Of a DNA stretch of 64,000 nucleotides, positions 1,521-57,866 are shown in pieces. The translations under genes and the position numbers were made by a program. A model generated the notes under the pieces. That model was not told the DNA's origin, made no database searches, and saw nothing but the letters and a program-made list of their open reading frames with translations. The number at the start of each line of letters is the position of its first letter. The stretch's first letter is position 1. The stretch is from Candidatus Omnitrophota bacterium (lineage in GTDB: Bacteria; Omnitrophota; Gorgyraeia; Zapsychrales; Fredricksoniimonadaceae): assembly GCA_903901225.1 (NCBI GenBank), contig CAIUQE010000003.1, positions 23,461-87,460 on the forward strand, written 5' to 3'.

Positions 1521-2228
1521 TTAGATTTTAAGATCCGATATATTCGGCGCTTTACATTCCAACAAAGATTTGACCTTATCCTTTAACAAGGGATCCGATA
1601 GATTCGGAAACACAACAGAATGAAGATATTCATTAACATCTTCTTTCTCCCCAAGAAGAACAATGGAACAAAGACCATAATATGAAATAACTTCCGTCGC
1701 CCGTGATAAAACCTCAGGGAAACTGACCTTTCTAACAAGTTTAACGATTTCAGTTAAACAAGCATTCCTTTTCTCAAATGAAGAATGCGCCAATGCCAGT
1801 TCCCACAAATCCATTATTAAATCACTTTTTATCTTCGAGGACTCCGGAACAATATCCAATCCGCTCTCAAGAACAACCCGGCTGGGGGAACTCCCATTCG
1901 CTTCACGTATATTGCAAGCCACATTTAGAATCAGCTCTTCAAAATCTTTATGTCCATATCCCTTCCTCAATATCTCCAATAAATGCCCACCTACAGCTTT
2001 ATCTACATTATTCCCAAATAAGCCGTTATGTTTCCAGCCATAAAGAAGACCAAATAACAAATGTCGTTCTTCAAGCGGAACAGATTCTTTATTTTCCAAA
2101 TGATCAACTTCTTCTCCAGATAAAAAGAACGGAAGATATCCCGTAAAATCCGGCACATAAAATCGAGCGGCGAAGTTGCTTCCCTCACCACACTCCTGCC
2201 ATACAATGGTATATTTCTCTTTATCCAT
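1521..2228 (-). CDS. hypothetical protein (no recognisable domain)
   Basis: ORF 1521..2264. Likely start at internal M (MDKEKYTIVWQ...) to avoid overlap with the upstream gene. Low GC; same strand as neighbours. Confidence 0.35.
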   Translation of the reverse strand: MDKEKYTIVWQECGEGSNFAARFYVPDFTGYLPFFLSGEEVDHLENKESVPLEERHLLFGLLYGWKHNGLFGNNVDKAVGGHLLEILRKGYGHKDFEELILNVACNIREANGSSPSRVVLESGLDIVPESSKIKSDLIMDLWELALAHSSFEKRNACLTEIVKLVRKVSFPEVLSRATEVISYYGLCSIVLLGEKEDVNEYLHSVVFPNLSDPLLKDKVKSLLECKAPNISDLKI

Positions 2229-2973: not shown

Positions 2974-3238
2974 ACTCTCTCTGACGAATCACACGATAAA
3001 CCCCAGGCTTGAACGTGATCTGACCGTGCTCCTCGTGATTAAGATGGACGGTATCATCTGCCTTGAAATAAAGTATGCCGTCTTTCTCGTACACATCACC
3101 GGCATCTAATTTATGCGCATGTCCCGTAGCCTCACCTTCGGCCAAGACCCGGTCTTTCTTCCGGACGACCCCCTCTGGGATCCTATCAATCTTAATGATT
3201 AAGATGTCTCCCTGCCTTTTCATAGCCGTCTCCCACAT
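2939..3238 (-). CDS. small hypothetical protein (phage-like)
   Basis: 99-aa ORF, MKRQGDILIIKIDRIPEG...GEATGHAHKL. No assignable domain. Packed between two minus-strand genes. Confidence 0.3.
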   Translation of the reverse strand: MWETAMKRQGDILIIKIDRIPEGVVRKKDRVLAEGEATGHAHKLDAGDVYEKDGILYFKADDTVHLNHEEHGQITFKPGVYRVIRQREYEPDGWRNVAD

Positions 3239-4141
3239 TTATGTAAGATTATCGAAAAATACGCCTTCATCTCGATTAAAGCGAATGTGCGTTGATCCCG
3301 AGTAACCGTCAGGGCTCTTAATAATTCGTATTTCTGCGATTCCTAGGTTTTCAGGTTTAGGCTCATAATAGTCTTCCCGGTAAAGCTGCAAGACAACATC
3401 TGCATAGACGTCGAAACCACCTTCCTCGCGGGCGATCTGGGATAAGAGATGTAACGGCCGTGTTTTTTCGTGCTCTTCTGTACGACGGGATAGCCAACTC
3501 GTCACAAAAACTGTTACTTCATTGCGAACAGCCATTGCTTTTAACCTTCTGGTGACCATCTCGCACGCCTTATAGCGCGCTGCTCCATCCAATAAAGCGA
3601 CATCTTCAATACACTGCAATGGATCGATCACAATGAGTTTTACCTTATGTTCAGCGACATGTTTCTTTACTATGCGCTCAACATCCTGGACAGTACGCGT
3701 CATGGAATCAATGTAAATTGGCAACTCCGCGACTATCCCCACACCCGCAACAAACTTTGATCGCTCTGTTCCATCCATCATCCCACAACGCGCTTTAGAC
3801 CTATCCACTTTGCCTTGTGCGCAAATAAGCCCAAAAACAATGTTCCGCTGTGTTAATTGGCCCAACGAGAAATACAATACAGGCACCTTTTGCTTAGCCA
3901 CATGCGCTGTGATAGAAGCCGCAAAGGCAGTCTTCCCCATTGCCGGCCGAGATAAACAGGCGAGCAGTTCACCAGGATGAAGTCCAGACAACATACGGTC
4001 AAGATCATTAAATCCAGTTGTAATCCCAGTGAGGCCAGGCCCCTGCCGTTCCATCCGTTCAATCTTATGAAGGACATCGCCAACGACATCTTTTACCAGC
4101 ACTGGGCCGGGCTTCTTCTTTAGGAAATTTGTTAGTAACAT
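3239..4141 (-). CDS. DnaB-family replicative helicase, RecA-fold C-terminal domain only (phage/plasmid type)
   Basis: DnaB motifs H1/Walker A (GFNDLDRMLSGLHPGELLACLSRPAMGKTAFAASI), Walker B (KLIVIDPLQ), and C-terminal block (RRLKAMAVRNEVTVFVTSWLSRRTEEHEKTRPLHLLSQIAREEGGFDVYADVVLQLYREDYY). Lacks the N-terminal primase-binding domain. Confidence 0.6.
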   Translation of the reverse strand: MLLTNFLKKKPGPVLVKDVVGDVLHKIERMERQGPGLTGITTGFNDLDRMLSGLHPGELLACLSRPAMGKTAFAASITAHVAKQKVPVLYFSLGQLTQRNIVFGLICAQGKVDRSKARCGMMDGTERSKFVAGVGIVAELPIYIDSMTRTVQDVERIVKKHVAEHKVKLIVIDPLQCIEDVALLDGAARYKACEMVTRRLKAMAVRNEVTVFVTSWLSRRTEEHEKTRPLHLLSQIAREEGGFDVYADVVLQLYREDYYEPKPENLGIAEIRIIKSPDGYSGSTHIRFNRDEGVFFDNLT

Positions 4142-5204: not shown

Positions 5205-5208
5205 AAGA

Positions 5209-5484
5209 TTATCTACAACCCGACCTAATCACGGCCACTATTTGACGAAACTTATTCTCTGGACTTTGCTTATAATACGATCTCACGACATCTACCACGT
5301 TACCTCTATTAAGACCTGGATTATCCCGACAAAGAGGATCATCAAGGTTATGTCGCCTTGCATATAATCCGTCTGCAATGCCTAAAATATAGCTATTTGC
5401 AACAGCAATCGAATGTGTATCGCTGTTCTCATCAAGCCAGTGACCATTAGGAACTTCACCTGTGTGAGTGTCTTCTTTCATCAA
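5209..5484 (-). CDS. hypothetical small protein
   Basis: 91-aa ORF with 4-nt gap to the protease gene and 21-nt gap to the cysteine desulfurase gene. No domain recognised. Confidence 0.3.
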   Translation of the reverse strand: MMKEDTHTGEVPNGHWLDENSDTHSIAVANSYILGIADGLYARRHNLDDPLCRDNPGLNRGNVVDVVRSYYKQSPENKFRQIVAVIRSGCR

Positions 5485-5505
5485 AATTCTCCCGGAGAAA
5501 TATGG

Positions 5506-6657: not shown

Positions 6658-6667
6658 CTTATAAGAC

Positions 6668-7600: not shown

Positions 7601-7625
7601 TACTGGACTCCGATCAACAATATAC

Positions 7626-9446: not shown

Positions 9447-9461
9447 TGTTTTCTCCCTGTT

Positions 9462-11063: not shown

Positions 11064-11081
11064 AACAAAATATCCTAGTAA

Positions 11082-11891
11082 TCAAAGATTACAAATCTGA
11101 CACGGGAGCTGGTCATCCTCATGATCTAGCACACTACTTAAAACTTCAACAAGCGGCCTATTGCTTTTGCTCTTCAATTCACGCTCTAGCTCTGTCTCAT
11201 GCTTGCGCTTAATTTCAGCCATACGCTCTGGCTGGACAAGCTCCTCTAAACTTTCACCGGCAATCCATGTGAAACGCTTGCCAGTGACAGGATCTGACTT
11301 CTCATACGCCATTGCTCTCTTAAAAAGATCTGGATGCCTTTCATAAAGGCCTACCCATTCCATGCGCCGCTGGAAGAAACAAAAGAAACAACCGGAACGA
11401 GAGCGCCACTTGTAATACTCAGGCAACCCCAACCCAGCCTCCTCGAGAATTTTCATAACCCCCTGTTTATCAATCTTGTGATCAACAAAAGGGAAAACAC
11501 TTGTAATATCCGCCTTGGGATTCTGATATCCCTTACGACCTTGCTCATCGTATCTGATACCAACATAACTTATTGCCTTATCTTTACCCACAAACTTCTC
11601 TAAGGGCTCAAGTTTAAGATTAACAGTGCACCAACGCATCCTTTGCGACGGCAGAAAGTAATTATTCCTAACCAACCACCAATCAAAGTCCTTCTCGGCG
11701 CTCAATCGCACAATCGGCTTGCCAAGATATTTCTCAAGCTTATGCAAATAGTCATAAGTTTCTTCAAGCTCGACGCCAGTATCACAAAAGAAATACTCAA
11801 TATCCTGGACCTTGTCCCTCATAAAAATAGCAAGAGCACTGCTATCCTTACCGCCGGAGATGCCTAATATATGACGAACTTTCTCTGCCAT
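11082..11891 (-). CDS. sspD: PAPS-reductase/ATP-pyrophosphatase family protein (SspD-like; BREX type 4 BrxP-like)
   Basis: PP-loop ILGISGGKDSSALAIF at the N-terminus. 269 aa, too short for DndC. Sits immediately downstream of the giant ATPase gene. Confidence 0.65.
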   Translation of the reverse strand: MAEKVRHILGISGGKDSSALAIFMRDKVQDIEYFFCDTGVELEETYDYLHKLEKYLGKPIVRLSAEKDFDWWLVRNNYFLPSQRMRWCTVNLKLEPLEKFVGKDKAISYVGIRYDEQGRKGYQNPKADITSVFPFVDHKIDKQGVMKILEEAGLGLPEYYKWRSRSGCFFCFFQRRMEWVGLYERHPDLFKRAMAYEKSDPVTGKRFTWIAGESLEELVQPERMAEIKRKHETELERELKSKSNRPLVEVLSSVLDHEDDQLPCQICNL

Positions 11892-11899
11892 AAAATCCT

Positions 11900-14800: not shown

Positions 14801-15424
14801 CGCAGCAGATTCCAACGACTTTCCTAACTCATCAATTACCAGCAATAGGCCAGGAACATGATCCTTTCTCAAATACTCGCAAACATCTCTAAAAACACTC
14901 AGAACATCATCACTCGTGACAACCTTCCCCTGCTCTCCACGCTTTAAAAGAAGCGCGATGTCAGCGAAGACCTGGGGTCTCCTTCCCCTCGCCCCTTCTA
15001 AATGTTCAACTAAGCCGCGCATCACACCCTTGAGAATGGCAAGTTCTAGAGGTTCACGACTAGCTGAAATAATCGATCGAAAGAACCCACTACCTTTCTT
15101 GCCGATCGTCAAACTGGAAAAAAGCTTCTCCGAAAGTTTACTGCTGGCGCTAGTTAACAAATCCCTACTTAAAGAAGCTGCCCTGCACCCCTTACCACCG
15201 AGCAGATTCTTTAAATAAACGATGAAAGCTGACTTCCCTGTCCCATAAGGACCAATGATAGACCACGCCCTTGTCGAAACCGGTGAAGACAAACTCTTCG
15301 TGATACTATCAAGAACCTTCAGCCCAGATTCAGTTAAGACATACCCGTCGACATGATCGTCCATCTCCACTTGAACGGAACGATGGAAACGCGCCCGGAC
15401 TGTAAATAATTCATTAAATTTCAT
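11900..15424 (-). CDS. sspC: large P-loop ATPase, 1174 aa (DUF499/BrxC-like; SspC-like)
   Basis: Walker A IIGPYGTGKSAFIVYL near the N-terminus. The size and position between a DUF4007-like gene and a PAPS-reductase gene match SspC/BrxC architecture. Start overlaps the upstream gene stop (15424). Confidence 0.5.
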   Translation of the reverse strand: MKFNELFTVRARFHRSVQVEMDDHVDGYVLTESGLKVLDSITKSLSSPVSTRAWSIIGPYGTGKSAFIVYLKNLLGGKGCRAASLSRDLLTSASSKLSEKLFSSLTIGKKGSGFFRSIISASREPLELAILKGVMRGLVEHLEGARGRRPQVFADIALLLKRGEQGKVVTSDDVLSVFRDVCEYLRKDHVPGLLLVIDELGKSLESAALNSENDIFILQRLAEFSSRSSDFPILFFTVLHQSFDRYASKLESNKRNEWAKIQGRFEEISFVDPSDQTVKLISSAIDYIGSSTEKKVIDITVEPLFKAYREVFSSPSSLSSEKVIKILEKCLPLHPLTAISLAPLFRSRFLQNERSLFAFLTSSESKGFLDFLAQNELPHDMAKVQFFTLANLYDYFVVNFGGKLFVQHDGKRWAEIEHALARTSDAFERSLLKTIGMLNIMADTLGISVNEEALICALDLRGPAERKRLKEGVSALMRRSVVVFRRYSGSYAIWGGSDIDIEQLLSEKKAAGFSHKDLVARLNEQFPLRPQVAKRHLFTSGTLRFFKKKYVLDKDLMEELKKPIEGVDGQILFCLSTDSVRRSSKELQSLLEGASKQVQRATIISRPNDAIRLLDAFVELVALQLIRKETPALQGDAIARRELDSRLLEVEKQVLSLAYETFFAPDRELGESVVWLDLEGARKGVSEKLLSKWVSDICDKIYSKAPIIKNEILNRRRISSSATQGRRLLMDGMMSSHMKERLGIEGYPAEYSMYMAVCFEGQLHQKSGDGYWEFVREPEKVAPHWRGVLKGLLSYLKENGERKIPLLELYQFLMQPPFGVREGVIPVVLLAFYMAYENEFALFDQGTFLPKPTALDFELMARVPKNYEVQLCLIEGVRAVVFDNLIATFLDQAGQKKFKEKGSILQIVKIFCEFANRLPTYVKKTRNVSERTRLVRACLLEAKEPAGLLYRDLPIACGFKPFQNIDGEQESEVKAFVEKLRESIAELQKEENKLFNDIQEILYRAFNVDPRASDARSNISERSKLVIDVTLDPSFKGFLVRVADHLPNKSWLESIATVVTGRPPLEWTDADLLKYEHEMAAFHHKIKKYEQIALERGRISGDIKGEIAQISVTSSKHGEMAKVFHIQDEYQERISQLEQSLVDFIDERGLSDKPEIFLSALSEVLRKMLVKESK

Positions 15425-16362
15425 TATGCCTTCCGCTCGAAATACTTCTTTAGGTATTCCATTGGCTCCGGTGTTGGCGACCTGCGATAAAGCTGCCTTA
15501 ACCCAGACGTCTCATCAAAAGTAATTTGCCCATTTGTTAAACGTTCAATCTTCTCAAACCTACGTATCAAAGAATCCTCGTCAATCTTAAAAATAAGCCC
15601 TGGCGACGCCTCACCATAAGCAAGCTCCTCCAAGGAAAGAACATCTCCTTGCCCCTTTACTTTATGCCAGTAATCAAGCACAGCAAAAACTAAAAGCTCA
15701 TCGGGAAGACCCTTCTTGTCCCCACGTGAAAAAACAAATAATCCCTTCTGGCCAGCTTCAAACACTAGCTCCAACTCCACCAAAGGGCAGTCTAATGAAT
15801 CCTCTAAAAGCGTCGCGACAGAAACATTCTTTGACGGAACATAAGACCTGACAAAACAATCAATATCACGGGTTAAAGTATTGGGCGTCAATCTCGAATT
15901 ATTCTGACGAGCAAACTCCATCAGCTCCGCGAACAGATGCTCCTTAGTAAACTCAACCGAAGAAAGCTTATTAAATGCATAAAACCACGTCGAAGCTCCG
16001 CTCTTTTCCGAGGCCAAGAACCAGTGAAGAAGCCATAAAGTTGCCCCGTCTTCTAAATATGGATCCCAGCCATTATCAAAAAACAATTTCTTACCTAATG
16101 AAGTGACCTGAACTCCAGAAGCCTCTCCATTCTCTGCAGGAAGATCCTCGATCACCTTTAGTATCGTGGCCCAGTACTTAATAGCATCCACCATATTCTT
16201 ACCGACACCTAGACACACTAATGCGTCATCCTTTCTAAACAAGAAAGAATCAGAAGAAACAGCATCGACCACCTTTTTTAACCAGGTATAGCGAAAAGGG
16301 AAAGTGCCATGACCGGAGAAATTAAGCTTAAAAGAAGATTTTTCCAATGTTGAAACGCTCAT
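15424..16362 (-). CDS. sspB: DUF4007-like protein (SspB-like), first gene of operon
   Basis: N-terminal FSGHGTFPFRYTWLKK motif, which I recall as typical of DUF4007. No DGQHR (DndB) motif. 312 aa. This call is from memory of the family, not a search. Confidence 0.4.
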   Translation of the reverse strand: MSVSTLEKSSFKLNFSGHGTFPFRYTWLKKVVDAVSSDSFLFRKDDALVCLGVGKNMVDAIKYWATILKVIEDLPAENGEASGVQVTSLGKKLFFDNGWDPYLEDGATLWLLHWFLASEKSGASTWFYAFNKLSSVEFTKEHLFAELMEFARQNNSRLTPNTLTRDIDCFVRSYVPSKNVSVATLLEDSLDCPLVELELVFEAGQKGLFVFSRGDKKGLPDELLVFAVLDYWHKVKGQGDVLSLEELAYGEASPGLIFKIDEDSLIRRFEKIERLTNGQITFDETSGLRQLYRRSPTPEPMEYLKKYFERKA

Positions 16363-16656
16363 TCGAACGACTTTCTATGTTCTTTTTCTTAGTTGTTAAT
16401 AAAAGATACTATTTAAAAAAACAAATAATCTGCACTTCTGTGCCAGCAACTAACGTAAAAGGCACCGATTCTCATCAAATCCTTGATTTTTTAACTTATA
16501 ACATATTAACATTATTCTTTTAACTTTCTACTGCTTAATAGGTCTTACACAATCCTAGTAAATCTTTTAAATTAAATCCTCTCTAATTTCGACCTATTTA
16601 TGCTTCTAGATAAGCCCAAAACTGATGCCCCCCATCACTGACCACCAATCACTTCA
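16363..16656 (-). promoter_or_regulatory. AT-rich intergenic region upstream of the ssp-like operon (presumed promoter/operator)
   Basis: About 290 bp AT-rich spacer between two minus-strand genes. The operon ATG lies at 16362. No confident -35/-10 assignment. Confidence 0.3.
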
Positions 16657-16989
16657 CTAAGCAATCTTAATTATGCGATCACCGTTAGGATTGCTCGGAT
16701 CTTCCATCGGCACATGATACTCAACTGAGAACTTATCGCCGACCTCTACCTTTAATTTCTTTGCTAAAACAATCCCAGAATCATTCCATTCTTGCCAATT
16801 AAATACCGGCTGGTCATAGTGCCGTTCAAAATCAATAACCCACTCTGCAAACAACTTTTCAAGCTCTTTGGAAATCCCATATTCTTCAGGAAAGCCACAA
16901 ACAGAATCAGCAATGTTCCCGCCACATTTATATGGAGGTTCATCAGGATACCGAAGCCAAGCGTACGGCCCCATCCCAAAATCGGCCAT
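16657..16989 (-). CDS. hypothetical protein
   Basis: ORF 16657..17019, likely starting at MADFGMGPYAWLRY. No domain recognised. Confidence 0.3.
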   Translation of the reverse strand: MADFGMGPYAWLRYPDEPPYKCGGNIADSVCGFPEEYGISKELEKLFAEWVIDFERHYDQPVFNWQEWNDSGIVLAKKLKVEVGDKFSVEYHVPMEDPSNPNGDRIIKIA

Positions 16990-17015
16990 AATAACAAGGG
17001 TTAACGTATGATCCC

Positions 17016-17165
17016 TCACTTAATCTTTTCCCCGCACCCAGGACAGTCAACTTCGTCGTCAAACAAAATACTTTTGTCAACTGAAGTGCCACATTTCGGA
17101 CACTTGATCGTGTCCGCACCGACAACAGCATCGTAAATAACAAATTCATCGAATAAGTCATCCAT
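17016..17165 (-). CDS. small zinc-ribbon protein (~49 aa)
   Basis: MDDLFDEFVIYDAVVGADTIKCPKCGTSVDKSILFDDEVDCPGCGEKIK carries two CxxC pairs. Confidence 0.35.
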   Translation of the reverse strand: MDDLFDEFVIYDAVVGADTIKCPKCGTSVDKSILFDDEVDCPGCGEKIK

Positions 17166-17285
17166 GTTATCTCCCTTACTGAATAGAACTATAAAACACA
17201 CCTGCGACAACGTTATGTCGCGTAGAATAAAAAAGCCTCGCCTTTAAGCGAAGCTCGCAAAATTACACCCTTATCGTAGGCCCAT

Positions 17286-18116
17286 CTAAATCTTTGAGGC
17301 ATCCATGACAGAATCTAGCTTTAACAATGTATGTTCGTTGTATTCCAAAACTCGCCACTCATGAATTTTATTCCAGAAAACAATTAAGCTTTTCAAACAA
17401 TAAGATTTATCGTCGAGAATGTTTTTAAGCACTGAATGCGTCTTCCGATCTTCTGGGGACGGCAAGGTCCAATTAGTACAAACAGGGTGATTGTGATACT
17501 GCCGCACTTCGTCACAGCTATTTGCTTTTATATATTCTCGCCAATTACGCGGATCGTCCGCAGGTTTACACCTACGGGCGCTGCCGATTCTAGCTGTAAC
17601 TTTTATAACAATCCCATTTCGGCAAAAGGCGGTTAACCAAACCTCTTTCTTTTCCTTTGACATGCCAACACATAAACTCTCTTCAAAGTCAGCAACTTTC
17701 TTCCCTACCCCACCAAAAGCGCTTTTGAAAGTTTGCCCTTTTTCTCGATCCTTGTACTTCGCGAAAACATCCAAAACTTTCTTTGAAAGAAATCTGATCC
17801 TTTCTTCCAGACCATGAATCTCCTGTGTGATTTTCTTAAAAGGAGAAATCAGTTTGTTCAGAAGCCAATAAAAGAAACCGACCGAAACTATACCTGCCAA
17901 CGGAACAAGGTACATCCAAGCCATCACCATGCCCGCGTCGGCCTTTACATGGCTTAAATATGAAACAAGACATACAACGACTAAGGTCACCGGTATACCG
18001 ACGATAAAGTTACGAATTCTCAACAATGATGTTAAACGAACGCTTAGATTGTCATACTCCGACTTGTTCGCTTGTACTAAAGCTATATGGTTAGGTTCGT
18101 ATGATTTCAAATACAT
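17286..18116 (-). CDS. membrane-anchored protein with possible JAB/RadC-like metalloprotease motif
   Basis: Two predicted TM helices (IVGIPVTLVVVCLVSYL, MAWMYLVPLAGIVSVGFFYWLL). C-terminal YHNHPVCTNWTLPSPEDR resembles the RadC/JAMM HNHPSG...PS..D motif, but the spacing is atypical. Confidence 0.3.
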   Translation of the reverse strand: MYLKSYEPNHIALVQANKSEYDNLSVRLTSLLRIRNFIVGIPVTLVVVCLVSYLSHVKADAGMVMAWMYLVPLAGIVSVGFFYWLLNKLISPFKKITQEIHGLEERIRFLSKKVLDVFAKYKDREKGQTFKSAFGGVGKKVADFEESLCVGMSKEKKEVWLTAFCRNGIVIKVTARIGSARRCKPADDPRNWREYIKANSCDEVRQYHNHPVCTNWTLPSPEDRKTHSVLKNILDDKSYCLKSLIVFWNKIHEWRVLEYNEHTLLKLDSVMDASKI

Positions 18117-18140
18117 ATAATTTCAATCAACAACGTATAA

Positions 18141-19127
18141 TCACTGAATGGATGCTAAGTAATCGGTCACTGTCTTCTTAATCTGCTGCCTAAAATTCTC
18201 GGGCTCAACAACACGAAGGCAGGGAATCCAATTCATAATTATATGAGAAACCTCCTCAGGATGCCCTGGGACGGTCTCTATAAGCATCGAGCCATCCGCT
18301 TCTTCTTTAACAATCTTCTGTAACGGAAAGTATTTACGTTCTTTGAAATACTGCACCGCTTCAGGCGCTACTTTAATCAACACTCGCTCTCCACGAACTT
18401 CATCAAACCAAACATTCACGCTGTCCTCAAGAATCTTGTCGATGTTAACTGACGGCGCAAACGACTCCTCCAAAATCTGCACATCCTGCACACGATCTAC
18501 CCGGTATTTCTGGATCTGCTTCTCACCTTTCTTAATCGCTATCAGATACCAAAACCCGTCAAAGAACGCGATCTTGAGCGGCTCAAGACAATACTCTTTC
18601 TCGATCTGGGCTGCGGAAACATATTTAATTGCGATGCGATTGCTTTCAAGAATGGCGGCTTCAAGATACTTGACCTGAGATGTTACAGGAAGAGGACTCC
18701 GCTTCGCTGGGACCTTAGCGTAATATGGCGTATAAAGATCTTTCGCCATTATCCGCTTAAATAAACTCCGGAAGGATTCCTCGAAAGTCCCTCCCAATCC
18801 ACAGGCTACTTCAAACATAAAAGACAGAAGCGAAGCCTGCTCTTCTGACAACGAGACCTTGCGTAATGAAAACCCTTCCATAAATTGATGGCGCCCGTTC
18901 TCCAAAGTCTCGATCGGATACCCGGCATCATGCAGGATCTTCAGATCTCTTTGAACAGTACGCTGGGTAACATCAAGAGTCTCAGCAACCTCCTTTGATG
19001 ATATGGACTTTCCTTTGTCCAAGATCGAAAGCATGGTAATCAGCCGTTCCACTGCCTTCTTATGCCCGTCGGCCTTCTTGCCTTTGCCTGTCCGTTTGAA
19101 TGTCACGATCTTCTTTTTCGCCGGCAT
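18141..19127 (-). CDS. WYL-domain transcriptional regulator (HTH-WYL-WCX; BrxR/CapW-like)
   Basis: HTH region ISSKEVAETLDVTQRTVQRDLKILHDAG, WYL motif FFDGFWYLIAI. Start ATG at 19127 with SD AAGGA. It overlaps the stop of the upstream nuclease gene by 4 nt. Confidence 0.6.
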   Translation of the reverse strand: MPAKKKIVTFKRTGKGKKADGHKKAVERLITMLSILDKGKSISSKEVAETLDVTQRTVQRDLKILHDAGYPIETLENGRHQFMEGFSLRKVSLSEEQASLLSFMFEVACGLGGTFEESFRSLFKRIMAKDLYTPYYAKVPAKRSPLPVTSQVKYLEAAILESNRIAIKYVSAAQIEKEYCLEPLKIAFFDGFWYLIAIKKGEKQIQKYRVDRVQDVQILEESFAPSVNIDKILEDSVNVWFDEVRGERVLIKVAPEAVQYFKERKYFPLQKIVKEEADGSMLIETVPGHPEEVSHIIMNWIPCLRVVEPENFRQQIKKTVTDYLASIQ

Positions 19128-19129
19128 AA

Positions 19130-20698
19130 TTATCCTTTCTGGAGTGCTTCTAAAGCCGCCAGTATGTCCACCATAGCTATGGTATCTAGCGCGCAATAAT
19201 CCTCAAGATCAGTGTACACTTTTTGTCTATCCGCAGGATCAACTTGATCTCCATAAGTCACGCGGGAATACTCCGTCGTAGCCTGTCCCCCGTCAGAGAT
19301 TGCCATGTCCTTGTAACTCTTTCCGCCTAAGACCGGTAGCACCTTCTTGATCGAGGCAGAACCACGCTGATCGGGATGATAATACAAGAAACTCCGAAAA
19401 ACATCTAAGAGGTCAGCCATTCTCGAACAAATATCAGCAATCCGAGACTCGTACTCCGGGAAAGAGTCCTTCATCTTATTAAGGACGTGCGATTCTTCAA
19501 ATGTGCGGTTGTAGACAACAACATTCCCCTGAATGCCAGTACACGCGCACAAGGAATCCAAGAAATCCTTCCTGGGATCGGCAGGGCTCTTTTGCAAGAA
19601 TGAATAGTGCTTCAATTCTCCACCGGGGATCTCTTGGACATGCACAGAGAACTGAATCGGGATTTGCTGGTATGGCGACGTTCCATTGAATCTTGGGATC
19701 GCCTCAAAGATCGTCTCAAAATCAATAAAATATAACGGGTACTTCATCCCCTTAACAAATGCCACGATGGCTGGCAAATCAACATGAGGTTTCCCCGCCA
19801 AGGCACACTGGTATTGAATGGCCCTAGTATCAGACAACTTGGCATTCTTAGGAATATCTTTCAAAAGCACTATCCCCTGATCCAGCATTTGAAAAGCCTT
19901 GTCCTTATTGCCCCTAAGCTCCAATACATTGCCCGGCGGAAGAAATGCCCAGCATGATAGCTTCATCTGGCACTCATAAGGTTTATTGCAATGCTTTCCT
20001 ATGGAAATCCCCGGACAGGTAGGCATATCAACGATTGCCAAAAAGCCATCAATCGTCTTTTTAATTTCGCCGGACAACAACGCAACCTTGTCGGTCACAT
20101 CAACCAATGCAAAGAACTCCTGCACATCAATATCGCCATCGCGAACATAATCACTATTGATGTGCATCAGAAAGCAGCGCCCAATCTTCAAGCCGGCCAG
20201 TTCGTAACAGTATCTTTGAAAAGCAATGTCCTGAAGGTATACATCTTTAAGATCGGTGCCGCACTTTACTTCGACAATATCCCAATACCCTATTCCTAAA
20301 CTTGATGGGACCAAGATATCGGCGCGTGAAAAGAGCCGCCCAGCCATCACCCCCGCCTCGTAGATCGGTTTCGGATTTGCCGCCGCCAACAAAGTCTTGG
20401 TTTCCTCTATATTCCGCAAGAAATCATCTTCCTGGATGCGAGCACCTCCGGGGAATCGAGTCATCGCGAGCTCGCCAACCTTATGACCGACATCAAATAC
20501 CTGCTGAAGCCTATCAGATGGTAGCGGGATCGCCTCAGGGGCATTGCATCGCATCCAAAGCAACTTTGGACACTGCAAACCATTCAAGAACTTCGACTTT
20601 GTGAGAACTTTCGGATCCTTGACTACTTTCCTGTCTCGGACAAAATCGTAAACAGCATCGTTCTTCAGCTTTTGTGACTCGAAATTTTCGTCATCCAT
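19130..20698 (-). CDS. PD-(D/E)xK (Cas4/RecB-like) nuclease fused to DEDD 3'-5' exonuclease (DUF2779-like)
   Basis: PD-(D/E)xK core GYWDIVEVKCGT in the N-terminal half. DnaQ-like Exo I motif YFIDFETI in the C-terminal half. ATG at 20698 preceded by SD AGGGG. Confidence 0.5.
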   Translation of the reverse strand: MDDENFESQKLKNDAVYDFVRDRKVVKDPKVLTKSKFLNGLQCPKLLWMRCNAPEAIPLPSDRLQQVFDVGHKVGELAMTRFPGGARIQEDDFLRNIEETKTLLAAANPKPIYEAGVMAGRLFSRADILVPSSLGIGYWDIVEVKCGTDLKDVYLQDIAFQRYCYELAGLKIGRCFLMHINSDYVRDGDIDVQEFFALVDVTDKVALLSGEIKKTIDGFLAIVDMPTCPGISIGKHCNKPYECQMKLSCWAFLPPGNVLELRGNKDKAFQMLDQGIVLLKDIPKNAKLSDTRAIQYQCALAGKPHVDLPAIVAFVKGMKYPLYFIDFETIFEAIPRFNGTSPYQQIPIQFSVHVQEIPGGELKHYSFLQKSPADPRKDFLDSLCACTGIQGNVVVYNRTFEESHVLNKMKDSFPEYESRIADICSRMADLLDVFRSFLYYHPDQRGSASIKKVLPVLGGKSYKDMAISDGGQATTEYSRVTYGDQVDPADRQKVYTDLEDYCALDTIAMVDILAALEALQKG

Positions 20699-20815
20699 AA
20701 TTTCACCCCTAACCCCACAATAGCTCCTAGCAAGACTTCTAATGATACCATGCGACAAGAATATGTCGCTGACAATTTGGTGGGCGTATCGAGTTAGAAC
20801 AGCTCTTCCGCTATA

Positions 20816-21297: not shown

Positions 21298-21834
21298 TCA
21301 TGTCGCAACTTGGTCATAAGACCCACTCTTTTCTGTATATCTCAAGAAATAACCAGATTTCCTTCGCGCCTTCGTATCCTTGCTACCAGGCGGACGACCA
21401 AGCACCTTGCCTTCCTTCTTAGCACGCTCAAGTCCCAAAAATGTTCTCTCCTGTATGATGGATCTTTCAAATTCCGCCAGAGCCGAGAAAACGTGAAACA
21501 TTAACACTCCCGACGGTGTAGCCAAGTCTATGTTGTCTCGAAGCGATACGAACACAATCCCCTTGTCCGTCAACTCTTTGACCGAAAGAATCATCTCGCT
21601 TAAACTCCTGCCCCACCTGTCAAGCCGCCAAACCAAAACACCTGCAAACTCCTTTCTCCTAAGGCGATTCATCAATCCGGCCTGTATCGGTCGCGAGTTT
21701 CTTGTCGATTCGACCTCCTCAAATACTTCATAGGAATAGCCCATCCTTTCGGCAAAAGCAACAAGCTCAAGACGCTGGTTCTCCGGGCGCTGATCTCGTG
21801 TTGACACTCTGCAATAAATAGCTCGATCCTTCAT
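21298..21834 (-). CDS. serine recombinase (resolvase/invertase family, small)
   Basis: N-terminal catalytic motif AIYCRVSTRDQ (Ser nucleophile) followed by the resolvase core (GVLVWRLDRWGRS). 178 aa with a basic C-terminal tail. Confidence 0.7.
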   Translation of the reverse strand: MKDRAIYCRVSTRDQRPENQRLELVAFAERMGYSYEVFEEVESTRNSRPIQAGLMNRLRRKEFAGVLVWRLDRWGRSLSEMILSVKELTDKGIVFVSLRDNIDLATPSGVLMFHVFSALAEFERSIIQERTFLGLERAKKEGKVLGRPPGSKDTKARRKSGYFLRYTEKSGSYDQVAT

Positions 21835-26268: not shown

Positions 26269-26582
26269 AATACGATCCTCCTAAAATCGGTTTAATCCGC
26301 GCTCAAAGATTTAGTCTGCGTAATTCCATGTGAACAAAAGAGATACTGTCGTTAATCTAGAAATCTAAAAATCTATCCCAGTAGCAGGGATTACTTATTG
26401 TGAATGAATCCTCTTCTTTCCGAATGCAATCACATGCCGCAAATGCTTCCTCTTACTCTCTCTCAATTATTTTCTAACTTTAATCCAAATTCACATAAGA
26501 TATTCAATTCCAACACATTCCGATGGCTATAATTCGGCTAGAATCATGCTGAAAGCTAAAATCACCATCCAATAGCACCGGC

Positions 26583-29300
26583 CTATTGACCTCCCGGCCG
26601 GACATACCTTTCCCAGAGATCCTGAAATTTGGCCAAGTCAATTTGGTAAGTCGGCTGCTTTCTGCCGCCAACCGTCCCCTGCTTTGAAACAACACCAACT
26701 TTCTTTAACTTCTTCGTAAGCGCATTGGACGTCTCCAGCGATTCAAAAGATTCCTGCTTCTGAAAATAACTCAGCACCTCAGGAACCATAAATATCTGAA
26801 CGGCGCCTTTGACATCGCTAGGGCGAATATCTTCATCATCAAACATCGCCTTCAAAACGGTCAGAACCTTGTAGGTTTCATTCTCCGTGACGCTATCTGC
26901 GTGCTTTTCCTCAAACGCCATCTCACTCCAAGCAGACATGGTAGCAGTCACCTTTAAGGTCGGATCTTCATCGTCTACCTGGTTGGCTATCAATAAAATC
27001 GGCCTCCATATGTCAAGTTCCCGGTTATTAAGATGCGCCATCCCTTGAATGCCATCAGCCCCGCTCTTCTGATAACGGTCTGACAATGCCTTGGCGTAGG
27101 TCAGGGCAAAGACATATAGATCATCCCTAATGCTCTGCTGATACTTGCCGTTCTCCTCTGTATCCATATATGTATCGACATCTTCATCCTCTTTCTTACG
27201 CAATAAATTGATCCGAACGGTGCGATCCTGAAGGACATTATCAATATCACTAATCCCCGCGAACATCTTCGGAGAGTATGCGCTATATGATTTGACAACA
27301 AATTTACCATCACCGGTTGACTCACACCGCTTCACGACGCCGCTCTTACAGAACCCGGCTTTCAGAATGCTTCCAAGAGCCGCCTGGACGCTCTTATCTT
27401 TCTCTGTAACCTTCTCAAATTCATCGATGAACATCGATGTCAGATTGTTTTCTATGTCCCTGTAAAGCACCGCCTCTGTCGGGCTGGTAATAACATCACC
27501 ATTAAAAGCCAGGCCCGCGATTATTTCCATCGTCAGTGACTTGCCGGATCCTTTTTCAGCGTTGATCCACACATATGGAAAATAGCGAAACAGCATAAAG
27601 ACATAAGTCCCCATGACCCACAAGACGATATATTGCAAGTGCGCGCCTGCCGGGAACTTGATAAACCGTTTAACATAATTGTAAATCTTCTTATAAATGT
27701 CCGCCGCCTTAACCTGATACCGACCGCTCACAAAATCATCGATACCTTTTCCAGAGAACCGAACCGTGTCGACAGTGTCGTGCTTAAGAATAAGCCCTTG
27801 GCTCTTGGCATCATCAAATGTAAATATATCTCGGTCGGACGTAATAAGGCACAAAGTACCCTGCGCCTTTACGGTAAAAACCATCCTGCCATCAGCGTAG
27901 TCCTGCGCCGGATGAACCATAGCATGGTCCTGTTCTTCCCGCACTCTCTCGAGTAGCTCTTCCTTACTGATGGATTTCGGCGCATCGGACTGCTTGTCCT
28001 GCTTATCCTCTTTGCGATAACCGTTCAAAACTTTCTCGTAGCTCTTCAACTCGTTTTCTTTAAGCCCAAAATGATCTTTAATAACATGCCGCAAGATTGC
28101 ATCGCCCTGTGCGATATTGTGACCAGCGATCGCTTGGAGTATTGGGTCAAGTACTCCCGGAAGCAGAATTTTGTCTGTATCAGCCGCTATCGTCTGAATT
28201 AGCGCTTTGAGTTCGTTTAATTCATTATCAGAAAGGGCCTCGCCTACCTGGCCTGAAGCCCTCATCGTTACCTTTGACCTGGCCTTCTTAATAGAATAAT
28301 CCAAGTACGCATCACCCTGCTCGCGGTACTTAGCTCCGATTGCGTATTCCTTGAAGATCTTCCTGATGTCTTCATCCATCAAGCCAACTTTTACAAGCTC
28401 ACGCAGGACATAGAAGTCTGCTTCGCTCCTTGAGTCAAAATGATCTTCAGCTGTCTTGCCTACCCTGATCAAGTGTTTAGCGCTTTCGGGTATCTTCAAG
28501 TCCTCTATCTTGAACGCGCGGGAACCCTTTTCATCGGAATCGTCCTTTGTTTTTTGCGCACCTTCTTGCCCGTTTTGGGAAGATGTCCCCGACGTAAACT
28601 GTGTGTTCTGTCCTGCTTGAAGTAGTTGTATATTCCTGCTAACCTCTTCAGGAAGAATCAGCTCAAAATCATCCAGGCAGTATCGTCTATTAGGCTCAAA
28701 CCTCAGCATCACAACATCTTTCACCGCATCCTTAATTTTATAGTTCTTTGTTCCAGGCGGCCGAAGGATTCTGGGCAAATCAGAAACCGTATCTCCTCCG
28801 ATATGAACTTCGATAGCCTTCAGAATCTTCTTCACGTAAGCCGGATCTTTTATCTCAAGCGGCTCCTTTAACAGCCAAATCGGGTACACTCCATGTCCTG
28901 ATGAAACAATAATCGACGGCTTTAACGGGAACGCCTCTATTGCTGCGAGGGCCTCTTCCAGAGTCTTATGTTTCGGTTTCTTCTTGTGGCCAACCTCTCC
29001 ATAATCAACGTCGCTCCATAAGCACACCAGATATTTGATGCTTTCTACGGTTCCGACTCCGTGTATCTCCCGTGGACACATACCAACATAAAAGTTACTT
29101 GCTGACCTGTAATTGATAACACTGTCGATATCTTTGTGAAACTTTGGCTTTACGCTCCCGCCGCTAAAGATCTCCCGCGTCTCAATATATCCACCATGAA
29201 CATCAAGATAATCGGCAAACATTGCGTGCAGAAAATCTTTCCTTATTGACTTTGCTTCTTCAGAATTATCATCCATTCGTACTCCCACGCTTTTACGCAT
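26583..29300 (-). CDS. replication primase-helicase (Prim-Pol-like N-terminal domain plus D5/P4-type SF3 helicase)
   Basis: N-terminal DxD (LVCLWSDVDYGE) and SSGHGVYPIWLL, which is primase-polymerase-like. Central Walker A NAEKGSGKSLT and Walker B TSMFIDEFEKV, which are P4/D5 helicase-like. The start could be the ATG at 29300 or at 29276 (SD GGGAG). Confidence 0.5.
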   Translation of the reverse strand: MRKSVGVRMDDNSEEAKSIRKDFLHAMFADYLDVHGGYIETREIFSGGSVKPKFHKDIDSVINYRSASNFYVGMCPREIHGVGTVESIKYLVCLWSDVDYGEVGHKKKPKHKTLEEALAAIEAFPLKPSIIVSSGHGVYPIWLLKEPLEIKDPAYVKKILKAIEVHIGGDTVSDLPRILRPPGTKNYKIKDAVKDVVMLRFEPNRRYCLDDFELILPEEVSRNIQLLQAGQNTQFTSGTSSQNGQEGAQKTKDDSDEKGSRAFKIEDLKIPESAKHLIRVGKTAEDHFDSRSEADFYVLRELVKVGLMDEDIRKIFKEYAIGAKYREQGDAYLDYSIKKARSKVTMRASGQVGEALSDNELNELKALIQTIAADTDKILLPGVLDPILQAIAGHNIAQGDAILRHVIKDHFGLKENELKSYEKVLNGYRKEDKQDKQSDAPKSISKEELLERVREEQDHAMVHPAQDYADGRMVFTVKAQGTLCLITSDRDIFTFDDAKSQGLILKHDTVDTVRFSGKGIDDFVSGRYQVKAADIYKKIYNYVKRFIKFPAGAHLQYIVLWVMGTYVFMLFRYFPYVWINAEKGSGKSLTMEIIAGLAFNGDVITSPTEAVLYRDIENNLTSMFIDEFEKVTEKDKSVQAALGSILKAGFCKSGVVKRCESTGDGKFVVKSYSAYSPKMFAGISDIDNVLQDRTVRINLLRKKEDEDVDTYMDTEENGKYQQSIRDDLYVFALTYAKALSDRYQKSGADGIQGMAHLNNRELDIWRPILLIANQVDDEDPTLKVTATMSAWSEMAFEEKHADSVTENETYKVLTVLKAMFDDEDIRPSDVKGAVQIFMVPEVLSYFQKQESFESLETSNALTKKLKKVGVVSKQGTVGGRKQPTYQIDLAKFQDLWERYVRPGGQ

Positions 29301-29388: not shown

Positions 29389-29619
29389 CTACGCACCCGC
29401 GGCTCTTTCACACACCACCCGTTTGATTCTGATTGCTTTGGGTCGCCCCATCCGGTCCAGACCAAGCTCAAACTCAACTATCATCCCGGTCTCCGGTGTG
29501 AATCCCTCGCAATCATTGATGTGAATGAAAATCTCGCGATTGTCTTGGTCTAAAACCAGAAACCCGAGATGTTTACCCGCGTGATACCATTTGATCGTCC
29601 CACGCATATTTTTGGTCAT
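29389..29619 (-). CDS. cold-shock domain protein (CspA family)
   Basis: RNP1-like GTIKWYHAGKHLGFLV and RNP2-like EIFIHI. About 70 aa. Confidence 0.6.
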   Translation of the reverse strand: MTKNMRGTIKWYHAGKHLGFLVLDQDNREIFIHINDCEGFTPETGMIVEFELGLDRMGRPKAIRIKRVVCERAAGA

Positions 29620-29908
29620 ACTTTCACTTCTCCTTCAACCTGGATCGCGGTCACCAAAAAGCCTTGCGATATGTCGATAAAACCCGGCATCAAAAGGACC
29701 AACCTCTTGTTTCAAGTACTTTAAAATTTTCCACTATGATTCCACTTGAGTTGTATTACGGCGGGTAAGTCGTGGGAAAGTAAGGTAAGATCAAATAAAT
29801 CCGTAAATCCTTAAAAAATATGGAGTTTACGCGTAACTTGAAGTACTATAATTCGTTGCGGGAAAAGGGTTCAAAGGAATCCCTCCTTCCGCACCATTGC
29901 CTTACCTC

Positions 29909-29958
29909 AAAAGAGCCAAGAACCTTCTACCCGTATGGGAGAAGGTTCTTGGCTTTTT
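29909..29958. terminator. strong bidirectional hairpin (terminator-like) at the island edge
   Basis: AAAAGAGCCAAGAACCTTCT - acccgtatggg - AGAAGGTTCTTGGCTTTTT: perfect ~17-bp stem flanked by A4 and T5. Confidence 0.45.
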
Positions 29959-29990
29959 ATCTGAGAAAGGCAATGGTGCCCTAACGAGGC
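29928..29990. repeat. 63-bp perfect direct repeat, copy 1 (att-like)
   Basis: TACCCGTATGGGAGAAGGTTCTTGGCTTTTTATCTGAGAAAGGCAATGGTGCCCTAACGAGGC is identical to 30079..30141. Confidence 0.6.
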
Positions 29991-30078
29991 TCCGTCCGAG
30001 TTAGGGCCAAAATAATAAAAAAACGCCCTGAGGCTCCGCCCGAACCAGAGCCAAAAAATATTTATACCTGGGATACCT

Positions 30079-30141
30079 TACCCGTATGGGAGAAGGTTCT
30101 TGGCTTTTTATCTGAGAAAGGCAATGGTGCCCTAACGAGGC
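30079..30141. repeat. 63-bp perfect direct repeat, copy 2 (att-like), coincident with the GC-content transition
   Basis: Identical to 29928..29990. Flanks diverge immediately on both sides. Confidence 0.6.
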
Positions 30142-30274
30142 ACCGCCCGCGCAAGCGCGCCAGTTAATTCGGGCCACTTCAATCCAACAAAAACCCAACA
30201 CTTTCTATCGATATTCCCGCTTCAGATGATAATATTACTGAAGCCCTAGGACGCCCGGCAACCCGAGGAACATC

Positions 30275-31771
30275 ATGCGAACCGATGAAGAATTGAATTT
30301 ATTGATCAGATCCAAATATCCGGTCATTTTCTTCGAATCAGTCGATGAAAGTTATTCTCTTGAACAATTAAAAGAGATAGCGTCAGCTCTTGGCCTCGAC
30401 TACTTCCAATGGTCCCTGACGGAAGGCCTTATAAGGATCCCCGGTGCCGGTGCGTATTATCAAACAAAAGAACCCCCCAAAATGCTGGGAACGGTCTTGG
30501 AACTCATCAAAGCCCAGGCAACAGGCGACATCAAACCCGCCTTGCTCGTGTTAAAAGATTTCCACAAATACCTCGACGACGCCCTCACGCTGCGCTTGTT
30601 CAAGGATACGATCAACACGGCAAGGAATACAAGGACCACCCTGATCATCCTCTCCGCCGAATGCAAGATCCCCAAAGACATCGAGCAGGACTGCGCTCAT
30701 TTGCTCGGCGGATACCCCGGGGACAATGAGATCGAGAAATTAATACGGGCGACCATCGCGGACAGCTGGCAAACCAGATCAGAGATCGCGTTCAACCTCG
30801 ACCGCGATGACATGAAGAAAGTCGTGGCGGCATTGCGGGGATTAACGGCCCAGCAAATACGCAACGTCATCAACCAGTGCGTGATCAATGACAATATCCT
30901 GAGCATCCAGGACCTTGAGATCATCGAAGCCTTCAAGAAAAAGGTTTTTGACCAGGACGGGCTGCTTGAATTCTATATCACGGAAGACAAGAACAATATC
31001 GCCGGCTTTGAGAACCTGAAACTCTGGCTCTCCGAAAGAAAAACCTGCTTCAACCGGGCGGCTACGCCTTCTCTGCCCGCGCCCAAAGGTGTCCTGCTCA
31101 TGGGCATCCAGGGATGCGGCAAAAGCCTGGCTGTCAAAGCCATCGCCCGGGAACTTGGCCTCCCCTTATACCGGCTGGACCTGTCCAAACTTTACAGTAA
31201 ATATATCGGAGAATCTGAAGAGAACCTGCGGAAAGCACTCCTGACCGTTGAGAAACTGAGTCCTGCCTGTTTATGGATCGATGAGATCGAGAAAGGCTTT
31301 GCTTCTTCGGGCGGCGATATCGATGGCGGCGTCTCCCAAAGGATCCTCGGCACGTTCCTCACCTGGATGCAGGAGCATAACACGAGCAGCTTCCTTGCTG
31401 CGACGGCCAACAATGTGTACCAGCTGCCGCCTGAACTGCTGCGCAAAGGGCGATTCGATGAAGTCTTCTTTGTGGACCTCCCGGACAACCGGTCAAGAGA
31501 ACAACTGTTCAAGATCCATCTTCAAAAACGCAACCTTGATCCGGCGCATTTCGATATCAACCTGCTCGCGGGATCGACCCATGATTTTAGCGGCGCGGAA
31601 ATTGAACAGGCGGTCATATCCGCCCTTTACAGAGCTTCAAGCCATAACGAACCCCTTAACACGGATCATATCCTGGAACAGATCCGGACCACAAAACCAC
31701 TTGCAGTATTGAAATCAGAGGAAATAAACGGATTGCGGGCCTGGGCCAAAGACCGCACAAGGCGCGCCTGA
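30275..31771 (+). CDS. AAA-family ATPase with ~270-aa N-terminal domain of unknown function
   Basis: Classic AAA module: Walker A GVLLMGIQGCGKS, Walker B CLWIDEIEK, second region of homology (ATANNVYQLPPELLRKGRFD). SD GAGGAA 5 nt upstream of the ATG. Confidence 0.6.
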   Translation: MRTDEELNLLIRSKYPVIFFESVDESYSLEQLKEIASALGLDYFQWSLTEGLIRIPGAGAYYQTKEPPKMLGTVLELIKAQATGDIKPALLVLKDFHKYLDDALTLRLFKDTINTARNTRTTLIILSAECKIPKDIEQDCAHLLGGYPGDNEIEKLIRATIADSWQTRSEIAFNLDRDDMKKVVAALRGLTAQQIRNVINQCVINDNILSIQDLEIIEAFKKKVFDQDGLLEFYITEDKNNIAGFENLKLWLSERKTCFNRAATPSLPAPKGVLLMGIQGCGKSLAVKAIARELGLPLYRLDLSKLYSKYIGESEENLRKALLTVEKLSPACLWIDEIEKGFASSGGDIDGGVSQRILGTFLTWMQEHNTSSFLAATANNVYQLPPELLRKGRFDEVFFVDLPDNRSREQLFKIHLQKRNLDPAHFDINLLAGSTHDFSGAEIEQAVISALYRASSHNEPLNTDHILEQIRTTKPLAVLKSEEINGLRAWAKDRTRRA

Positions 31772-57815: not shown

Positions 57816-57866
57816 AAGCCTCAAATTGTGTGGTTATTCAGTGAAAAAATGATCTCATCGAGCGTA

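Follow-up and report, generated by a model that had tools for sequence, protein, structure and literature searches.

Introduction

The RepB' primase of the IncQ plasmids, such as RSF1010, initiates on two sites, ssiA and ssiB, which are 40-nt inverted repeats, one per strand and each with a hairpin (PMC8567376). The plasmid pRN1 depends on a 100-bp stem-loop, which adjoins its orf56/orf904 operon and can be moved to another place, and the same has been proposed for phage BIP-1 (PMC4234260). Here we describe a locus of a Candidatus Omnitrophota bacterium that lies in a stretch of 64,000 nucleotides (assembly GCA_903901225.1, contig CAIUQE010000003.1, positions 23,461 to 87,460 of the forward strand), which we call the window and whose own numbering is used throughout. 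At the edge of an acquired island that carries an SspABCD defence system, an intergenic region contains two perfect 63-bp direct repeats, which a sequence-only reading had taken for att-like repeats left by integration. Our study showed that the first of these repeats is one half of a long nested palindrome, that the palindrome stands upstream of an operon encoding a replicase with a RepB'-type primase, and that replicases of this primase family are associated with large inverted repeats. The explanation we favour, tentatively and with somewhat more doubt than confidence, is that the palindrome is a cis-acting origin or priming-signal element of an integrated RepB'-type replicon, accompanied by an extra copy of one of its arms.

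Results

Anatomy of the repeats

The repeats occupy a 655-bp intergenic gap between divergent genes, in which the following features can be distinguished:

29928..29990, plus strand: copy 1 of the 63-bp direct repeat, made up of the loop, the whole of arm Y and 11 nt past the arm
30079..30141, plus strand: copy 2 of the 63-bp direct repeat, with a complete second Y arm (Y2, 30088-30130) and no partner arm
29891..29979: nested palindrome of 89 bp, with arm X at 29891-29931, the loop at 29932-29936 and arm Y1 at 29937-29979
29978..30024, plus strand: tail of unit 1, a small hairpin GCCCTAAC...GTTAGGGC (-16.4 kcal/mol) followed by an A-rich stretch
30026..30062, plus strand: unit 2, a truncated middle unit that repeats the tail of unit 1 only (score reached in 0/1000 shuffles)
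30129..30200, plus strand: tail of unit 3, a GCCCTAAC...GTTA..GGGCCA hairpin with insertions of 12 nt and 4 nt, then an A-rich stretch (score reached in 11/1000 shuffles)
29845..29874, minus strand: promoter-like TTGAAC-18-TATAGT, by consensus match only, which points at the cold-shock domain/replicase operon and lies 17 nt from the base of the palindrome

The 63-mer (TACCCG...CGAGGC) has exact copies at these two positions only when the whole window is searched. The copies are identical at 63/63 positions and 151 bp apart, with a spacer of 88 bp between them; no match of this kind is expected by chance, even with three mismatches allowed, and a degenerate similarity of the two copies runs on to about 80 nt. 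The sequence-only reading was thus right about the two perfect repeats and about the hairpin around the first, which can be extended to the 89-bp palindrome, copy 1 being its 3' half. The palindrome arms X and Y1 (41 and 43 nt) are about 88% identical and point their 5' ends at each other from opposite strands; the inner arms measure 22 nt, are 91% complementary and stand 5 nt apart, and the outer arms are 13 nt long and 100% complementary. Compared with Y1, the reverse complement of X shows two mismatches, a 3-nt indel and two further mismatches, all of them mid-arm, making arm X a diverged inverted copy, and across these differences a small hairpin is retained in each arm by different sequence. 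The palindrome folds at -63.4 kcal/mol as RNA (z -10.9) and at -38.6 kcal/mol as single-stranded DNA (z -12.4). It is the sole inverted repeat detected in the 25.5-30.4 kb around the replicase operon and, in a structure scan, the strongest local structure of the island. Copy 2 is without the 5' arm, and the fold of its region is ordinary (z -1.2).

A stem of this kind, flanked by an A-tract and a T-tract (CTCAAAAGAGCC...GGCTTTTTATCT), might also act on transcription. The palindrome would then be a strong bidirectional intrinsic terminator that insulates the island promoter or halts transcription round the circular form of the element, with copy 2 as a by-product, or, in a variant of the idea, the terminator of a small RNA (sRNA) of about 100 nt starting near 29860. 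A promoter-like TTTACG-15-TATAAT on the plus strand at 29826-29852 fits this proposal, as does the place of the hairpin in the reconstructed circle, between the last gene and the first-gene promoter of an array of genes that run in a single direction. Proteins of the CspE/CspA-like class are known to melt terminator hairpins, and the first gene of the neighbouring operon encodes such a protein (below curated cut-offs). We find this explanation improbable, however: the 35-bp stem far exceeds those of ordinary terminators, a terminator scan made no call, neither strand has a gene that ends here, the T-tract (T5 after the inner stem) is paired with the A-tract in the full hairpin, and the 15-nt spacer of the plus-strand promoter is poor. 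Rfam 15 gave no family match for an sRNA, only generic hairpin matches of 14-28 bits against thresholds of 70-99, and a perfect half-copy that is unable to fold would be left unexplained. The fallback alternatives of the sequence-only reading, a structured non-coding RNA or a terminator duplicated during insertion, are conceivable, with no positive evidence found for either.

Outside the 63 bp, the two copies behave differently on their two sides. The left flanks are unrelated (424/500 shuffles score equally well); by eye, five more bases (ACCTT) left of the 63-mers agree across a 2-nt indel. Between the right flanks there is homology, interrupted by indels (score reached in 11/1000 shuffles), and both fold as a GCCCTAAC...GTTA..GGGCCA hairpin followed by an A-rich tail. 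The region is made up of three nested units with a common 3' end, of which unit 1 (29891-30024) is complete, unit 2 is reduced to the tail, and unit 3 has one arm and the tail. An old tandem duplication of 151 bp was rejected, as TRF finds no such array and the left flanks are unrelated. Also rejected, by reasoning, was an RNA switch in which X would pair alternatively with Y1 or Y2, since the local hairpin would always form first and the two partners are identical. The resemblance of GCCCTAAC...GTTAGGGC to the R''/R' boxes of an integron attC site was dropped without a formal test, the unit being only about 30 nt long and there being no integron integrase.

The left end of the direct-repeat identity (29928) lies 6 nt from the dyad centre of the palindrome (29934). 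The centre of a long palindrome is a spot where breaks and template switching tend to happen, and the beginning of the duplication near this point is what would be seen if a functionless foldback, similar to a miniature inverted-repeat transposable element (MITE), had inserted at the island edge and been partly duplicated by slippage or break repair at its centre, or if the duplication were a chance event. No signal linked to a function was found (no Rfam family and no strong promoter in the spacer), and the island shows signs of decay, which would both suit such an origin. We nevertheless judge it quite unlikely. The palindrome has no target-site duplication around it and no further copy in about 71 kb of this genome, and its position beside a primase of a kind that uses inverted repeats would have to be a coincidence. 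Nor did a copy turn up in any of the collections searched: a 19-mer from the inner stem gave 20 matches in 185,579 species genomes, all of them chance matches of 19-21 nt, and none in IMG/VR, a 21-mer from the outer stem had one chance match in the JGI metagenomes, and neither PLSDB nor INPHARED had a blastn match to the intergenic region as a whole.

The repeats are identical in three other public assemblies of the locus, which come from different samples, so that four sequences, including the window, show one orientation. One of these assemblies (L033) has three differences in 12.5 kb, all outside the repeats (24320 T>A, 30773 A>T and an additional C at 27608), the last of which shifts the reading frame and divides the replicase into pieces of 573 and 337 aa. 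The population of this organism is near-clonal, and the replicon may be decaying. The single orientation bears on a further proposal, that of an invertible DNA switch between the divergent transcription units. X and Y2 form inverted repeats of 22 nt (91% complementary) and 13 nt (100%), 156 and 214 nt apart, and the 156 bp that they flank could be flipped by the small serine invertase of the island. This enzyme is the sole recombinase of the island, of the resolvase/invertase type, with a weak match to the Mpi family. Invertible promoters are known in sizes that include the range of this segment. There is, however, no promoter-like site inside the segment, the recombinase gene is 8 kb away, and the abutting Y1 copy would have no role in the switch; together with the identical sequence and orientation of all four sequences available, this makes inversion very improbable.

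A second long palindrome is found at 57863-57940, in the part of the window with 60% GC. It has 32-nt arms that are 94% complementary and 14 nt apart, each arm being itself a hairpin (GGGCGGGTC...GACCCGCCC), which gives it the look of a repetitive extragenic palindrome or bacterial interspersed mosaic element (REP/BIME).

The replicase and its relatives

The palindrome lies 270 bp upstream of a two-gene operon on the minus strand, and the replicase gene is followed by an AT-rich gap:

29389..29619, minus strand: cold-shock-domain protein of 76 aa, first gene of the operon (PF00313, 5e-7; CspE/CspA-like, below curated cut-offs)
26583..29300, minus strand: replicase of 905 aa, with an N-terminal RepB'-type AEP primase and helix bundle and a C-terminal DUF3631
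26269..26582: AT-rich gap 3' of the replicase (33-40% GC), with three tandem 8-mers TAGATTTN at 26354-26375

The N-terminal 345 residues of the replicase have more than 6,500 homologues, and the AEP primase motifs (DxD, SGxG and RLPGTxNxK) are conserved in an alignment of 42 of them. PF16793 (RepB_primase) is matched by 7/42 homologues, and the C-termini of these are D5/SF3-type helicase domains. An AlphaFold model (pLDDT 88.9) has as its best match in the PDB the primase RepB' of RSF1010 (3H20; E 7.5e-9, probability 1.00), the match covering both the catalytic and the helix-bundle domains. Motifs and structural match identify the N-terminus of the replicase as a RepB'-type primase. By tblastn, hits were obtained to RepB-domain primases of plasmids, to primases of the P4 family and to those of phages. 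The DUF3631 half, for its part, is similar to proteins that replicate small plasmids in Sulfolobus (3e-16), Streptomyces, Thermus and Acinetobacter. The related islands that were reached via the replicase share its C-terminal half alone (52-56% identity) and have no DNA similarity to this one.

Replicases of this primase family are associated with large inverted repeats family-wide. We surveyed 80 viral loci (IMG/VR, L035-L114) that encode relatives of the primase domain, 32 of which are non-redundant and have a complete replicase. In these 32 loci, the density of inverted repeats is 2.97 per kb within the 200 nt that follow the replicase stop codon, compared with 0.13 per kb elsewhere, and an inverted repeat with a large spacer stands beside the gene for 11/32 replicases compared with 0/202 other open reading frames (ORFs; Fisher p 6e-11). 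The survey extends the older suggestion made for pRN1 and phage BIP-1 to diverse viral replicases.

A palindrome of another setting was seen upstream of a related primase operon (L031), in a divergent regulatory region at 3792-3857. Its 27-nt arms are 96% complementary, and each holds the palindrome TTACCAATAATTGGTAA; the arms are probably putative paired operator sites.

The AT-rich gap 3' of the replicase of the island is an alternative or additional candidate for the origin, judging from its base composition and its repeats. On the minus strand, the tandem 8-mers at 26354-26375 read TAGATTTT TAGATTTC TAGATTAA and have an iteron-like look.

Comparison with known replication origins

The locus resembles the IncQ plasmids by the class of the enzyme, RepB' being the best structural match of the island replicase. 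We checked the layout of an IncQ1 plasmid, where 22-bp iterons are followed by an AT-rich segment and then by ssiB and ssiA, whose 5' ends face each other 71 bp apart. As in this plasmid, the palindrome of the island presents two related copies of about 40 nt, one per strand and with facing 5' ends, and in both systems the two copies differ mainly within their internal hairpin. Both also have GTG in the 3' tail, a 3-mer that carries no weight. In the scheme of an ssi site, nt 7-27 make up a stable hairpin of its own, with an unpaired hexamer for recognition on the 5' side and the start site on the 3' side. A sequence kinship of the arms with ssiA and ssiB was sought by comparison and rejected, no similarity being found. 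The island arms abut (5 bp apart compared with 71 bp) and together make one long hairpin, whereas on their own they fold weakly (-4.6 and -5.6 kcal/mol; z -2.0 and -3.4) in comparison with ssiA (-8.7) and ssiB (-8.4). While ssiA and ssiB occur once each, the island has a third, direct copy of one arm, and its primase is fused to a DUF3631 domain. Neither adjacent 22-bp iterons nor an initiator of the RepC type was found in the island; the part of the intergenic region that is richest in AT (38.5-41% GC) adjoins the palindrome, but the sole iteron-like repeats are 3.5 kb away.

The operon as a whole resembles those of pRN1 and the Bordetella phage BIP-1, which likewise consist of two genes, for a small nucleic-acid-binding protein and for an AEP-primase replicase of about 900 aa. 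In pRN1 as in the island, a single stem-loop of about 90-100 bp is the sole strong structure nearby, its sequence is not conserved, and elements of both families also occur integrated. The stem-loops of pRN1 and its relatives are, however, located 3' of the replicase and have stems of 12-21 bp and loops of 40-80 nt, whereas the palindrome of the island precedes the operon on its 5' side, its stem being 35 bp and its loop 5 nt long, and the gap 3' of the island replicase is unstructured (z +1.0). The C-terminal half of the island replicase also differs, being DUF3631 rather than a recognised D5/SF3 helicase with a winged helix.

A third comparison is with the satellite phage P4, which has two long direct repeats in its cis replication region (crr), near the gene for the alpha primase-helicase. 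P4 alpha is reported to bind repeats at the origin. P4 and the island are both integrative elements in which long direct repeats, with tens of bp between them, stand near the gene for a multifunctional primase replicase, and each has a second origin-like region, distinct from these repeats, across the gene. The P4 repeats differ in holding short iterons bound by a winged-helix domain, none of which is evident in the island, and the P4 primase is of the Toprim type, while that of the island is an AEP.

The island and its boundaries

The description of the repeats as lying at an island/chromosome junction was confirmed. To their left is an acquired block of 42-47% GC in which all genes, from 29619 down to 1521, are on the minus strand, and to their right a conserved AAA ATPase gene. 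The block, which extends from about 1.5 to 30.2 kb and holds genes for replication, recombination and Ssp defence, is an integrated plasmid-like replicon that carries an SspABCD phosphorothioate defence system and is now probably decaying. Besides the operon described above, its main features and those of its two junctions are:

21298..21834, minus strand: small serine recombinase of 178 aa (resolvase/invertase type), the sole recombinase in the island, with a weak match to Mpi-family master invertases
19130-20758: DUF2779 protein
18141-19196: BrxR-like HTH-WYL-WCX regulator
15424-16362: SspB (DUF4007)
11900-15424: SspC (PADLOC, 1e-280)
11082-11891: SspD (3e-113)
9462-11063: PbeA-like helicase
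7626-9446: GHKL ATPase
6668-7600: PLD nuclease
5506-6657: SspA (3e-148)
4389-5204: LmuA-like protein
3239..4141, minus strand: helicase of 300 aa consisting of the DnaB C-terminal domain alone, at the far end of the island
1542..1566, plus strand: ATTCGGCGCTTTACATTCCAACAAA, candidate junction repeat on the left, about 30 nt from where the alpha-2-macroglobulin gene has its start codon
30167..30191, plus strand: ATTCGGGCCACTTCAATCCAACAAA, candidate junction repeat on the right, which agrees with 1542-1566 at 19/25 positions in direct orientation
30275..31771, plus strand: Ycf46/SpoVK-type AAA ATPase of the chromosomal flank, widely conserved

The SspABCD system is complete and, with its accompanying genes, occupies 4389-20758. 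The PbeA-like helicase, the GHKL ATPase and the PLD nuclease may together form an effector module that senses phosphorothioate. The island also contains a DUF6876 protein and small uncharacterised ORFs. At its left end, the stop codon of the terminal ORF is 10 bp from the start of the alpha-2-macroglobulin gene, which is followed by that for PBP1C; on the right, the AAA ATPase gene is followed by genes for a GGDEF protein and for modification of the cell envelope.

The GC content did not jump from about 47% to about 60% within some 100 bp of copy 2, as the sequence-only reading had it. Measured in steps of 200 nt, it varies between 41 and 50% over 29600-30500 and, in the AAA gene, between 47.5 and 58.5% (mostly 51-54%). 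The window as a whole is tiered: 42-47% between 1.5 and 29.6 kb, 48-59% (mostly 52-54%) between 30.3 and 40.2 kb, and a plateau of about 60% only from about 40.2 kb onwards. The DNA to the left of the island has about 50-53% GC. A block of about 50% GC is seen on both sides of the island, with the genes for alpha-2-macroglobulin and PBP1C on the left and those for the AAA ATPase, GGDEF and envelope-modification proteins up to 40.2 kb on the right, and the island may be nested in a larger variable region.

If the 63-mers were att repeats of this island, a partner would be expected at its other edge. None was found at about 1510-1570 or in the 7 kb beyond, the outcome that had been named beforehand as speaking against an att function, and a third copy was absent from the window and its left extension by exact, three-mismatch and word-7 BLAST searches. 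Scans with Pfam, PHROGs and NCBIfam revealed no tyrosine integrase or large serine integrase among the island ORFs. The window has no tRNA, tmRNA or Rfam family that we could find, which agrees with the remark that no tRNA gene is recognisable here, and no other target gene was recognisable. No exact sequence longer than 12 nt is common to both junctions. Integration sites are thus not a likely identity for the 63-mers, which more probably belong to the replication origin of the element. A tandem arrangement of sister elements is not supported either, because the spacer between the 63-mers has no similarity to the left end of the island.

The only similarity that links the two junctions is a weak, imperfect repeat of 25 bp (19/25), distal to copy 2. 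It was noticed post hoc as the best gapped match of the junctions. Relative to random window segments, its empirical p is 0.03 when the whole gap is considered and 0.007 when only the last 150 nt of the gap are. Should the repeat be real, the island would measure about 28.6 kb, the empty site would be a divergent intergenic region of 139 bp, the terminal ORF would stop inside the core in the circular form, and both 63-mers would be internal to the element. An island-free relative was sought via the AAA gene and not found: this gene has thousands of homologues, the nearest are 72% and 68% identical and do not share the synteny, and all public contigs of the organism carry the island. In distant relatives, a large serine recombinase and a helix-turn-helix (HTH) regulator are encoded at the position equivalent to the repeats.

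Two copies of GATCCGATA[T/G]ATTCGG are present at the left junction (1530-1601), 55 bp apart and each partly palindromic (CCGA..TCGG). One of them overlaps the candidate left junction repeat, and the copies could be putative protein-binding sites.

The three nested units can also be read as a recombination scar or the remnant of an att array, left over from serial site-specific integrations or from a second element that was almost completely deleted. The 63-mer would then be the terminal or att-proximal sequence that they had in common, as in the version of the sequence-only reading that has an attR and a remnant att. Tandem arrays of att sites or target fragments, such as the 3' fragments of tRNA genes, are indeed nested direct repeats that keep one end, lie at an island edge and can be closely spaced, and the units retain their 3' tail and are truncated from the 5' side like displaced target fragments. 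The left limit of the identity, 6 nt from the dyad centre, is where a crossover or break would be expected in a palindromic site, and all tails resemble the candidate junction core GGGCCA...A-rich...AAC. The recombinase and regulator that relatives hold at the place of the repeats suggest that such a module has been lost here. A distantly related element (L030) provides a precedent, as a partial copy of tRNA-Glu lies 17 nt downstream of the intact one, with perfect 40-nt repeats 134 bp apart, beside its recombinase; clustered target fragments at one edge do therefore occur in this kind of element. We still regard a scar as rather unlikely. In contrast to the known arrays, neither a target gene nor an integrase nor a partner at the opposite end was found for the island, the repeats flank 88 bp only, and these 88 bp are unlike the left end of the island. 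An internal deletion that kept both sites exactly would be contrived, and a perfect 63 bp beside flanks rich in indels is not expected from simple decay.

The L030 locus itself (2608-3168), between gyrA and the large serine recombinase, has an intact tRNA-Glu (2957-3034) flanked by two partial copies, each with an insertion of 30-50 nt in the anticodon loop, and a small GIY-YIG-like ORF; from its sequence it looks like a complex integration hot spot.

Discussion

We propose that the palindrome, at the inner right end of the integrated replicon, may be a cis-acting replication element. Arms X and Y place the same sequence on opposite strands, reading outward from a common centre, and once the duplex is opened the primase domain would find one single-strand initiation signal on each strand, much as ssiA and ssiB do for RepB' in the IncQ plasmids. 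Alternatively, the whole stem-loop might be an assembly site, as in pRN1. The second 63-mer would be an extra complete arm on the plus strand, which could have arisen by a recent partial duplication from the centre of the palindrome or could serve as a redundant site for priming or binding. This proposal is consistent with the RepB'-type primase encoded by the neighbouring gene, with the family-wide association of such replicases with large inverted repeats, with the rank of the palindrome as the strongest local structure of the island and the sole inverted repeat around the replicase operon, with the AT-rich stretch beside it, with arms of 41 and 43 nt whose 5' ends face each other, whose outer segments are conserved and whose differences are all mid-arm, and with the fact that the perfect 63 bp of copy 2 span a whole arm while both flanks have diverged. 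Were the 25-bp junction repeat real, the palindrome would moreover lie inside the element, as an origin must.

Several observations weigh against this proposal. The inverted repeats of the relatives are found at most 200 nt 3' of the replicase stop codon, whereas the palindrome stands on the 5' side of the operon, and no structure (z +1.0) is seen 3' of the island replicase; the AT-rich gap there, with its three tandem 8-mers, is a more conventional candidate for the origin. The shape of the palindrome is unlike both the stem-loops of pRN1 and the relatives, with their short stems and large loops, and the widely spaced ssi sites of IncQ, and the single arms fold more weakly than ssiA or ssiB. 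The arms have no sequence similarity to any known ssi site or origin, and no iteron-binding initiator was identified in the island. The element may also be dead, considering that it has no integrase and that its replicase is frameshifted in one strain. No sequence variation in the repeats and no homologue at the DNA level that could show their conservation turned up in the assemblies and collections searched.

There is a slim chance that the locus represents an origin architecture not described before for replicases that combine a RepB' primase with DUF3631, in which abutting priming signals capable of forming a cruciform are joined by a third, perfect copy of one arm at a distance of 151 bp, within an integrated element that mobilises an Ssp system. 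The third copy might then be a second start site on the plus strand, or a site for copy control or termination.

Whatever the role of the third copy, the locus illustrates that perfect repeats bordering an island are not necessarily att sites, and that a partner at the other edge has to be checked for. The association seen in the survey means that an inverted repeat next to the gene could serve as a simple rule for finding the origins of phage and plasmid replicons with this type of replicase. If the palindrome is indeed the origin or priming signal that we tentatively propose, it would mark the place at which an integrated replicon with a defence system begins to replicate itself, and the way in which it does so, and would bear on how Ssp-type defence islands amplify or move.

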